Translations under genes and position numbers: made by a program | DNA from: a virus | DNA: 27,572 nucleotides | Virus genome (UHGV): UHGV-1358942 | Strand: one strand, 5' to 3' | The notes under the pieces: generated by a model | The model's database searches: none | Told to the model about the DNA's origin: nothing | What the model saw: the letters and a program-made list of their open reading frames with translations, nothing else | Part shown: positions 21,216 through 23,381 of the stretch, piece by piece | Numbering within the stretch: the stretch's first letter is position 1 | Layout of the letters: every line of letters begins with the position of its first letter

Positions 21216-23381
21216 ATGTCAGATATCACCGCAAATGTTGTGGTAAGCATGCCTTCGCAACTCTTCACTATGGCGCGTTCTTTTAAAGCCGTAGCCAATG
21301 GCGAAATTTATATCGGGAAAATTGACACTGACCCGGTAAATCCTGAAAACCGGATTCAGGTTTATGTAGAGAATGAAGACGGTTCTCACGTTCCTGTTTC
21401 TCAACCAATCATCATTAACGCCGCCGGTTATCCGGTATATAACGGACAGATTGCCAAATTCGTTACCGTGCAAGGCCATTCTATGGCTGTTTATGATGCG
21501 TACGGTGCGAAGCAGTTTTATTTTACGAATGTGCTGAAGTACGACCCTGATCAACTGGAGCAGCGTCTTTCTGGAAGTGATGGCGCAGGAATAATTGGAT
21601 ATAAAAATAAGGGACCATTTGCAATTTTACAAACAGTAAAAGACAAATTAGATAGGATTTATTATGTAAGTGATTACGGTGTCTTACCAACAAATAGTGC
21701 CACCGTTAACTCTACAAATTTGCAGAACATGCTGAACGATCTGTCTGGTAAGTCCACGATTACGAGAATTGTGTTTGCAGATCAGGGTACTATTTTTGTC
21801 AATGGGCCAATCATAGTCCCTAATAACACCGACATCGAAATTAAATCCGGCGTTACGGTTTCAGGCGCGTCTGGCAATCTGAGGCCGGTATTTGTAAGTG
21901 AGAAATGGGAATATGTTCTGTCAAACAGGACAGTCTCGGGAGGTTTTGCTTCTAACACATCCGATCTTGGTAACCGCTCAGATTATATTGGGATATGGGG
22001 AGGTGGGACCGTTGACTACAACTATTCTACGGGAGGCACCTCGAATGGGATGGAAATGCATTGCATCTGCATTGCATCAGCAGTGCGGGTTAAATTAGGT
22101 GGTGGACTGGAAATTAAAGGTGCAAGAAAATATTCTTACCTTGTAGCCAACGTTCAATATCTTGATGCTCAAGGGCTTCGTTTTAATAACAACTCTGATG
22201 GACTTCATCTACAGCCACCTATTGATTATGCCTACGTAAGGGATCTGTACGGTACGACTGGCGATGACATGTTTGCAATGACCGGAGGGGATTACCTTGC
22301 TTACGATTTAGGGTTGCGCGGAACGTTTAACCATATCGACGTTAAGGGAATTTATGGCATTAACTCGTTGTGCGCGGTTAAGGTTGCCGGTAACTCCACT
22401 ACACCAATTCGTCATCTCAGTGTTGACGGTGTTTACGGCACATATCAGCACAGTGTAATCCGTGTATGGACTGATAGCGCGCAACTTGCACAGACTGGTG
22501 TTAAAACCTTGAACATTGACAATGTTGGCGGTGTCCCGGGCGCCGGATACCGAGCTATCGAGTTCAAGACCGTCGGTACAGGAGCTGTCACTGTCGATAA
22601 TGCTGTGATTGGCGTAATATCTGCTAACTACTCGTCAGCTACTGTGCCTGTGGTGTCAGTAACTACCGGCTCGGCTGGGTCATCCTCGGTTCGTATCTAC
22701 AACCTGGAATGTCGGTGCCCTCGCGATGTCGCATATTTTCTGGAGGTGGGCGGCGATGGCGCCGGTGCCGATAATAGCCGAATAGACAATCTTAAGGTTA
22801 ATTTCGATAAAACATTACTTGCTACCGGCGTATCGGACGCATCCGGAGTTCGCATCACCCGCGGGCAGATAAACACCGTTATTGCTTCGGGGAATATTGA
22901 CTTGATTTCAGGGCAGGCGGTGATAAGAAAGTCTAGCGGTAAAGTAGAAAGAGTTATTTTCGATAAATTAACACAATCTAATGGTTATAGCTTTATAAGT
23001 ACTGGTGTTAACTACGACAATACCACTCCCTCGTTTGAGTTTATCGGTGGATTTTTCAACAACCCAGACAAATTAACAAGTCTGGTTAGCGGCTATTCTG
23101 TTGTTTGTGGTGGTAATGTTGTATCAAGTAAAACAGGTGAAGTTTTCACTACAACAACCGGAACTGTAAATATAAGTGGGCATATGCAGTATGGAAACTC
23201 CGCTATACCATCCACACCGGTTTCAGGGGTCACTTGGGTGATTAAAGGGTTTGGTATTTTTGCGGATGTTCACAACGCAACTGCAGTTAGAGGGAATCAC
23301 TGTTACAACACAAATACCAGCCTTGCGGGTGGGGTTGGCCCTGTAGCGGCGAACGGTACAAGTTGGATCAGTGTCGTATAA
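21216..23381 (+). CDS. Tailspike protein (conserved P22/HK620-type N-terminal head-binding domain plus beta-helix receptor-binding/depolymerase domain)
   Basis: Start at ATG 21216 (GGAG 21205-21208). N-terminal ~115 aa ([28 protein letters not shown]...VLKYDPDQ) match the P22-family tailspike head-binding domain; the remainder is distinct. Confidence 0.9.

Follow-up and report, generated by a model that had tools for sequence, protein, structure and literature searches.

The tailspike gene of UHGV virus genome UHGV-1358942 appears to encode an ordinary mosaic, in which a standard virion attachment domain is joined to an uncharacterised beta-helix, and it is followed by a convergent, split acetyltransferase gene. 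Judged by its DNA, the 27,572-nucleotide stretch analysed here (the window) is the late region of a temperate podovirus of the P22-like group (CUS-3/HK620/Sf101-type). Its first 21 kb, upstream of the tailspike, show 94-96% DNA identity to the late regions of CUS-3, Kapi1, Sf101 and HK620. A scan for open reading frames (ORFs) returned one long plus-strand ORF at 21168-23381; the start was placed at the ATG at 21216, from a comparison with P22-family proteins and a GGAG 8 nucleotides (nt) upstream, giving a product of 721 amino acids (aa). The gene ends the late operon after the ejection genes (gp7/gp20/gp16) and an immI-like Mnt/Arc gene, the position held by P22-like spikes, and the ORF at 18410-20257 just upstream encodes a gp16-type DNA transfer protein (phrog_770 match). 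The features of the locus are collected in Table 1.

Table 1. Tailspike, acetyltransferase and neighbouring features, in nucleotide positions of the window.
Feature	Position	Strand	Basis
Tailspike head-binding (virion attachment) domain, residues 1-113, DPDQ at its end	21216..21554	+	Pfam PF09008, DNA identity
Hinge/linker with recombination junction, aa 114-133	21555..21614	+	P22-like similarity stops, fibre similarity starts
Receptor-binding, presumably enzymatic, right-handed parallel beta-helix module, aa 122-721	21580..23381	+	AlphaFold2 model
Densest invariant block, candidate active site: NSDGLH 326-331, TGDDMF 348-353, GGDY 357-360, CAVK 386-389	22191..22382	+	Homologue alignment
Hairpin terminator, bidirectional, between convergent genes; right limit of exchanged module	23385..23405	.	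Both strands, 8-9 bp stem, 6 GC pairs
SGNH domain ORF, 237 aa, 3' half of disrupted gene	23407..24120	-	Pfam PF19040 E 1.5e-29; PDB 6se1 (OafB SGNH domain) E 3.4e-10
AT3 membrane domain ORF, 364 aa, 5' half of disrupted gene	24141..25235	-	Pfam PF01757 E 5e-40
Frameshift site AGGGGGTTAGC, one T shorter than in-frame allele	24163..24173	-	Allele comparison
Probable attP core CGTAATCGTGAAA	25975..25987	.	Context 25835-26004
Tyrosine integrase, P4/IntS-like arm-binding type	26202..27380	+	Pfam PF13356 and PF00589
AlpA/excisionase-like helix-turn-helix (HTH) ORF, 63 aa	27361-27552	-	Overlaps integrase 3' end on opposite strand
Mnt/Arc repressor, immI-type, 99 aa	20828-21127	-	Arc-like ribbon-helix-helix PF03869 and C-terminal Mnt PF11423
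173-aa ORF	20272-20793	-	Lipoprotein-type leader MKKSLLIIPLLLVGC; phrog_6067 (unknown function) E 2e-110; no Pfam match

The similarity of the tailspike to P22-like phages stops at a sharp boundary behind the head-binding domain. The Pfam Head_binding profile PF09008 aligns over residues 1-113 at all 113 profile positions (E 4.6e-65), and the PDB sequence matches of the protein are solely the Sf6 gp14N and P22 gp9N head-binding domains. In a megablast comparison with 50,697 phage records, 31 records matched, each limited to gene nt 1 to ~338-347 at 81-94% identity (IME10, HK620, CUS-3, Sf6 and Sf101 among them), and none covered 80% of the gene. A reading made earlier from the sequence alone had confined P22-family similarity to the first ~115 residues and placed a switch of protein after the DPDQ hinge, and both proposals agree with these limits. 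The DPDQ motif comprises residues 110-113 and is followed by an LRxxL...G...GY linker that is common to other architectures carrying the module. On the far side, the gene of an 823-aa tail fibre with a different N-terminus (loci L003 and L007) has 91.7% DNA identity to the window over a stretch that opens at gene nt 365 (aa 122) and closes 5 nt beyond the stop codon, at 23386. Since P22-like identity reaches nt 338-347 and fibre identity begins at nt 365, the left junction lies at aa 114-122. The exchanged cassette thus appears to be bounded by the hinge (DPDQ/LEQRL) and by the terminator after the stop codon, and would have been gained by recombination at these two places. Proteins with whole-length similarity do exist: they are 95%-identical, uncharacterised prophage proteins, orthologues of the same chimera and no known tailspike of another build. 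RefSeq labels orthologues 'phage head-binding domain-containing protein', and a look-up of the exact tailspike sequence returned no record.

The C-terminal module is predicted to form a long beta-helix and belongs to a small, unannotated family. Conservation and structure were analysed from a 24-sequence alignment of module homologues reaching down to 33% identity. In the resulting AlphaFold2 model of the monomer, residues ~150-721 form a long beta-strand stack with a predicted local distance difference test score (pLDDT) above 90; a heterogeneous alignment at the N-terminus makes the model poor in that part. The model bears out the beta-helix-like fold that the sequence-only reading had proposed after the hinge. 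Its 'Gly/Asn-rich' wording is fair (12.8% G and 7.5% N over residues 121-720), and its conserved HCICI segment corresponds to residues 282-286, where C285, I286 and A287 are at least 90% conserved in the family. Structural matches of the module, including the K1 and K5 lyases, all show ~9-13% identity. For residues 120-721, Pfam at E <=10 returned a chance DUF5936 match and nothing else, PHROGs returned no match, and neither phmmer nor a profile matched a PDB sequence. Among 1.84 billion cluster representatives scanned exhaustively with HMMER, 274 were related at E below 1e-3, of which 16 reached E below 1e-30. By these comparisons the receptor module seems to fall in no described family.

Conservation within the module peaks at residues 323-392, a region that contains the candidate active site. 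Residues D328, H331, D350, D351, D359, D375 and K389 are invariant in the 24 homologues, and D328, D350, D351 and D359 are spaced by one rung. Acidic residues one rung apart may recall the NTD/DD motifs of glycoside hydrolase family 28 (GH28). The module nevertheless differs from GH28 and other pectin-lyase-fold enzymes: identity is ~13%, PF00295, PF12708 and PF13229 give no Pfam match at E <=10, and the GH28 His and Arg-Ile-Lys motifs were not identified in the module. The spikes P22 gp9, Sf6 gp14 and HK620 gp9 have the same head-binding domain (65-90% protein identity), the same DPDQ hinge and a right-handed parallel beta-helix, whereas their receptor modules share only ~10-13% structure-based identity with that of the window and give no sequence match. 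These characterised spikes are endorhamnosidases or an endo-N-acetylglucosaminidase. Four hallmarks of a P22-type tailspike, namely head-binding domain, short hinge, beta-helix receptor domain and genomic position, are all present in the window protein.

The module is found behind several kinds of N-terminus. Besides the P22 head-binding domain, at least four other N-termini precede it: PF18668 Tail_spike_N, PF12571, an unclassified fibre N-terminus and a leader-like N-terminus that occurs in Pantoea in a non-phage chromosomal context. These N-termini and the sharp boundaries of the module argue for the horizontal exchange of the receptor-binding module that had been proposed from the sequence. 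In the large protein collection, too, the full-length proteins most similar to the C-terminal part have other N-termini. Among them are the 823-aa fibre (95% protein identity over 83% of the query) and, at 85% identity, 738-aa proteins with PF18668, encoded by Enterobacter hormaechei and by a metagenome-assembled genome of Plesiomonas. Among the phage records, tblastn identified only the lateral tail fibre of AugustePiccard (Bas01, Drexlerviridae) as covering the rest of the protein, with 38.5% identity over residues 114-721. The Bas01 and Enterobacter prophage proteins belong to the same beta-helix family and differ from the window tailspike in their Tail_spike_N (TSP1/gp66-type) adaptor and siphovirus-like virions. 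For the Bas01 fibre, the BASEL paper presumes O-antigen binding and gives no substrate (PMC8594841). In L003 (Logan SRR31598754) the 823-aa fibre gene is located in an apparently short, degraded prophage (1280-15560) with the order integrase, RecT/YqaJ and DndB genes, then fibre, AT3 gene and lysis cassette, and no visible head or tail genes. This element adjoins genes with PP_kinase, Ppx-GppA and MASE1/EAL domains, which we take to be ppk, ppx and a yfgF-like gene.

Co-occurrence with a rare O-antigen gene cluster points to the likely target of the module. The module and its neighbour gene are present together in 2 of 5426 complete Escherichia coli genomes, FACU 2024 and PM7. The carrier prophages occupy different sites (dacD/sbcB in one, tRNA-Arg/yfdC in the other), and their tailspike alleles, which differ, share 91.9% and 89.6% of nt with that of the window; these look like independent acquisitions. 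The wzx and wzy genes of FACU 2024 occur in six of the 5426 genomes, both module carriers included, a coincidence with a hypergeometric chance of ~1e-6. The link extends to a second species: the Wzy cluster holds E. coli and E. fergusonii proteins, and E. fergusonii members of the Wzy cluster and of the module cluster agree in the length of their longest contig, at 4,583,330 and 4,619,411 bp, the former (CP057220.1) carrying the 721-aa tailspike. The homology search for a matching O-antigen that the sequence-only reading had suggested led to a rare wzx/wzy type and did not yield a serogroup name: Wzy homologues are labelled just 'hypothetical protein' with no named relative, no strain name in the E. 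coli collection bears an O label, and the literature on PM7 and on E. fergusonii O-antigen clusters gave nothing usable. SI-NP020, one of the six wzx/wzy genomes, has been typed as 'uncl:H14' (PMC8209727). The FACU 2024 O-antigen cluster contains rmlBDAC, wzx, wzy, three GT4 glycosyltransferases, one GT2, manC and manB and no uronic-acid genes of its own, which suggests a sugar unit with rhamnose and mannose. As the cluster encodes neutral-sugar pathways, hydrolysis seems more likely than beta-elimination.

Given this co-occurrence, the rare O-antigen is most likely the target of the module. If the beta-helix instead acted on another glycan, such as a group capsule, colanic acid or enterobacterial common antigen (ECA), perhaps as a lyase, the shared O-type would be a coincidence of lineage. 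We consider this improbable: two prophages with differing sites and alleles share a wzx/wzy type present in only six genomes, the link recurs in E. fergusonii, and genes for O-antigen modification (AT3 or gtrABC) always come after the module, while the rml and man genes and the lack of uronic-acid genes in the cluster speak against a lyase.

The gene downstream of the tailspike appears to be an OafA-like AT3-SGNH O-acetyltransferase that is split by a frameshift. The first half retains the AT3 motifs R/K-X10-H, FFxISG and RxxR (R14-X10-H25, FFVISG 41-46 and RFVR 69-72), and the second half the SGNH Ser/Asp/His triad, with intact GDS and DxxH blocks (S412 and D587-x-x-H590 in repaired numbering). 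The halves lie in different frames owing to a 1-nt deletion at codon 356. Around this site the window reads ACTAGGGGGTTAGC and FACU 2024 reads ACTAGGGGGTTTAGC, in frame; the FACU 2024 version of the site itself is AGGGGGTTTAGC. Six intact homologue loci have ACTAAGGGTGTTAGC or ACTAAAGGTGTTAGC, and P0162, a 99%-identical E. coli protein, reads through as TRGFSFRF (TRGFSFRFSDTLKQ). Adding one T restores a 609-aa protein, which shares 91% identity with an acyltransferase of E. fergusonii and 77% with proteins that bear the label 'O-antigen five'. In this repaired protein H25, F41, G46, R69, R72, E325, S412, D587 and H590 stand at the positions of their counterparts in Salmonella OafA, for which important positions and motif definitions have been described (PMC7448272). 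The repaired gene shares the AT3 plus SGNH architecture of Salmonella OafA and OafB; the window gene differs from these in being split and in its low identity to the solved SGNH domain of OafB. At 37%, its guanine-cytosine content is low compared with 50% for the phage and marks it as a foreign moron.

The frameshift probably leaves the window copy inactive unless the deletion is a sequencing error. The two domains are fused in one polypeptide in relatives and lie on separate ORFs in the window, where the SGNH ORF begins at an internal ATG (MDNTPW...) with no visible leader. In OafA, activity falls below 1% with the S412A and H590A substitutions, and 'both domains are required' (PMC7448272); loss of activity is predicted because the SGNH domain needed there is here split off with no leader. 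The sequence-only reading had the neighbouring acetyltransferase modify the polysaccharide that the tailspike targets; this copy, with a frameshift that reading had missed, probably modifies nothing. An artefact of sequencing or assembly, or a slip that can revert, would leave a functional conversion pair, and this we regard as somewhat unlikely. The difference is a single base, TT against TTT beside a G5 run, every catalytic motif of both halves is intact, a 99%-identical allele is in frame and intact cassettes are common. Set against this, the deletion is present in the sequence as given, and independent inactivation in the two other complete-genome carriers makes loss plausible: the FACU 2024 gene has an IS3 insertion (L001 9012-10174) and the PM7 gene is deleted down to its last ~300 bp beside a transposase remnant (L002 8132-8342). 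All three copies compared in full context (window, FACU 2024 and PM7) are thus damaged. Programmed phase variation in a homopolymer at the site was considered and is not supported, the difference being TT versus TTT beside the G5 run and other alleles having no run.

Intact tailspike and acetyltransferase pairs occur in related prophages. As proposed from the sequence, the acetyltransferase gene of the window is convergent to the tailspike, with the hairpin terminator between them. In the draft genomes L022 and L023 of E. coli (the L023 tailspike having 95% aa identity to that of the window) and L026 of E. fergusonii, the gene for the same tailspike converges on an AT3-SGNH gene that is intact and encodes 609/610 aa. 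At two further loci the tailspike is cut by IS1 (L024) or the acetyltransferase ORF (568 aa) runs off the contig end (L027). Behind the module, other phage types have different AT3 genes (L003, L006, L007, L008) or gtrABC (L009-L013, and L015-L018 for 30%-identical relatives). A tailspike, an acyltransferase and intS also occur together in many further P22-like prophages of E. coli, such as those in O26:H11. A single AT3 gene co-travelling with the module was considered and rejected, because the three AT3 genes compared are only distant superfamily relatives (BLASTP E 1e-4 to 4e-7 over short stretches). The receptor-destroying and receptor-modifying pair of the sequence-only reading consequently holds as an arrangement, in L022, L023 and L026 and in the AT3 and gtrABC relatives, and not for the frameshifted window copy.

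The interval between tailspike and attP matches the classical seroconversion slot, and this synteny suggests that the enzyme acts on the glycan cut by the tailspike. Synteny and the family names likewise point to the O-antigen as acetyl acceptor. The gene could alternatively be an unrelated passenger acting on peptidoglycan, ECA or another sugar and leaving the tailspike receptor unaffected. AT3-SGNH proteins do also acetylate peptidoglycan and other glycans (PMC9558356), and the distant relationship of the module-adjacent AT3 genes would fit such a role. The position in the slot, the tailspike/AT3-SGNH synteny conserved in E. coli and E. fergusonii, residue numbering identical to OafA, and gtrABC filling the slot where AT3 is absent make a passenger improbable.

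Taken as a whole, the reading of the locus as a P22-like mosaic tailspike with a beta-helix for a rare O-antigen and a frameshifted OafA-like partner is one we consider likely. Residues 1-113 would dock the tailspike on the conserved tail hub, and the beta-helix would recognise an O-antigen of the rare Wzx/Wzy type common to some E. coli and E. fergusonii, most likely cleaving it as an endoglycosidase; the same cassette would circulate on other virion adaptors. An intact acetyltransferase would serve as lysogenic-conversion partner, acetylating the O-antigen in the periplasm, so that lysogens would offer this tailspike a poor receptor. In the window the 1-nt deletion parts the AT3 membrane domain from an SGNH domain with no export signal and so is predicted to give an inactive copy. 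Several points weigh against this account, in addition to the possible sequencing error at the frameshift. The O-antigen link rests on few genomes, four of the six complete E. coli genomes of that O-type lack the module, and the window contains no host genes from which the O-type of its own host could be read. The beta-helix fold is also found in lyases, epimerases and non-catalytic adhesins, and no sequence match backs GH28 membership of the module. Finally, the 364-aa AT3 fragment may retain residual activity; AT3-only acetyltransferases such as Sf6 Oac, which has no SGNH domain, work without one.

The module might even represent a glycoside-hydrolase family seen here for the first time, specific for an Escherichia O-antigen that is still unclassified; as a cassette, it would move among four or more types of virion adaptor and a Pantoea protein that stands free. 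This proposal is speculative, and we hold it to be unlikely. Were it true, the recurrent, independent knock-outs of the partner acetyltransferase might reflect selection against O-acetylation in lysogens and not random decay. Mosaic tailspikes with adjoining O-antigen-modifying genes are long established in P22-like phages, and other phage-borne O-antigen acetyltransferases occupy the same place in a prophage, beside the tailspike and the att site. To this the present locus adds sharply defined breakpoints, a link to an O-type that is rare and unclassified, and the frameshift. Tailspike receptor modules set phage host range and serve as serotype-specific reagents and depolymerases. The present module adds a structurally confident, unannotated beta-helix family to the exchangeable receptor-binding cassettes and offers a candidate enzyme and probe for an Escherichia O-antigen left unclassified by published in-silico serotyping of one strain with the same wzx/wzy, while the frameshift cautions against assuming that the conversion function is active in the window copy.

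The right end of the window contains a probable attP core and an integrase gene related to those of the FACU 2024 prophage. To the left of CGTAATCGTGAAA the window corresponds to the dacD-side junction of that prophage, and to the right it corresponds to the int/sbcB-side junction at 99%. A phage of the same type occupies the dacD/sbcB interval in FACU 2024, where the core and the annotated 5' end of sbcB overlap. The intact attP suggests that the window represents a phage or circular configuration and not an integrated one. The integrase gene and the integrase end of the FACU 2024 prophage are 99.1% identical in DNA, and the 63-aa HTH ORF matches an HTH gene beside int there (L005 227-418). 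Upstream of the tailspike gene, the Mnt/Arc gene is directly adjacent and divergent, with no ant gene seen between the two. The 173-aa ORF lies between the gp16-like gene and the Mnt/Arc repressor, the slot in which P22 carries sieA, and may be a superinfection-exclusion or moron gene.

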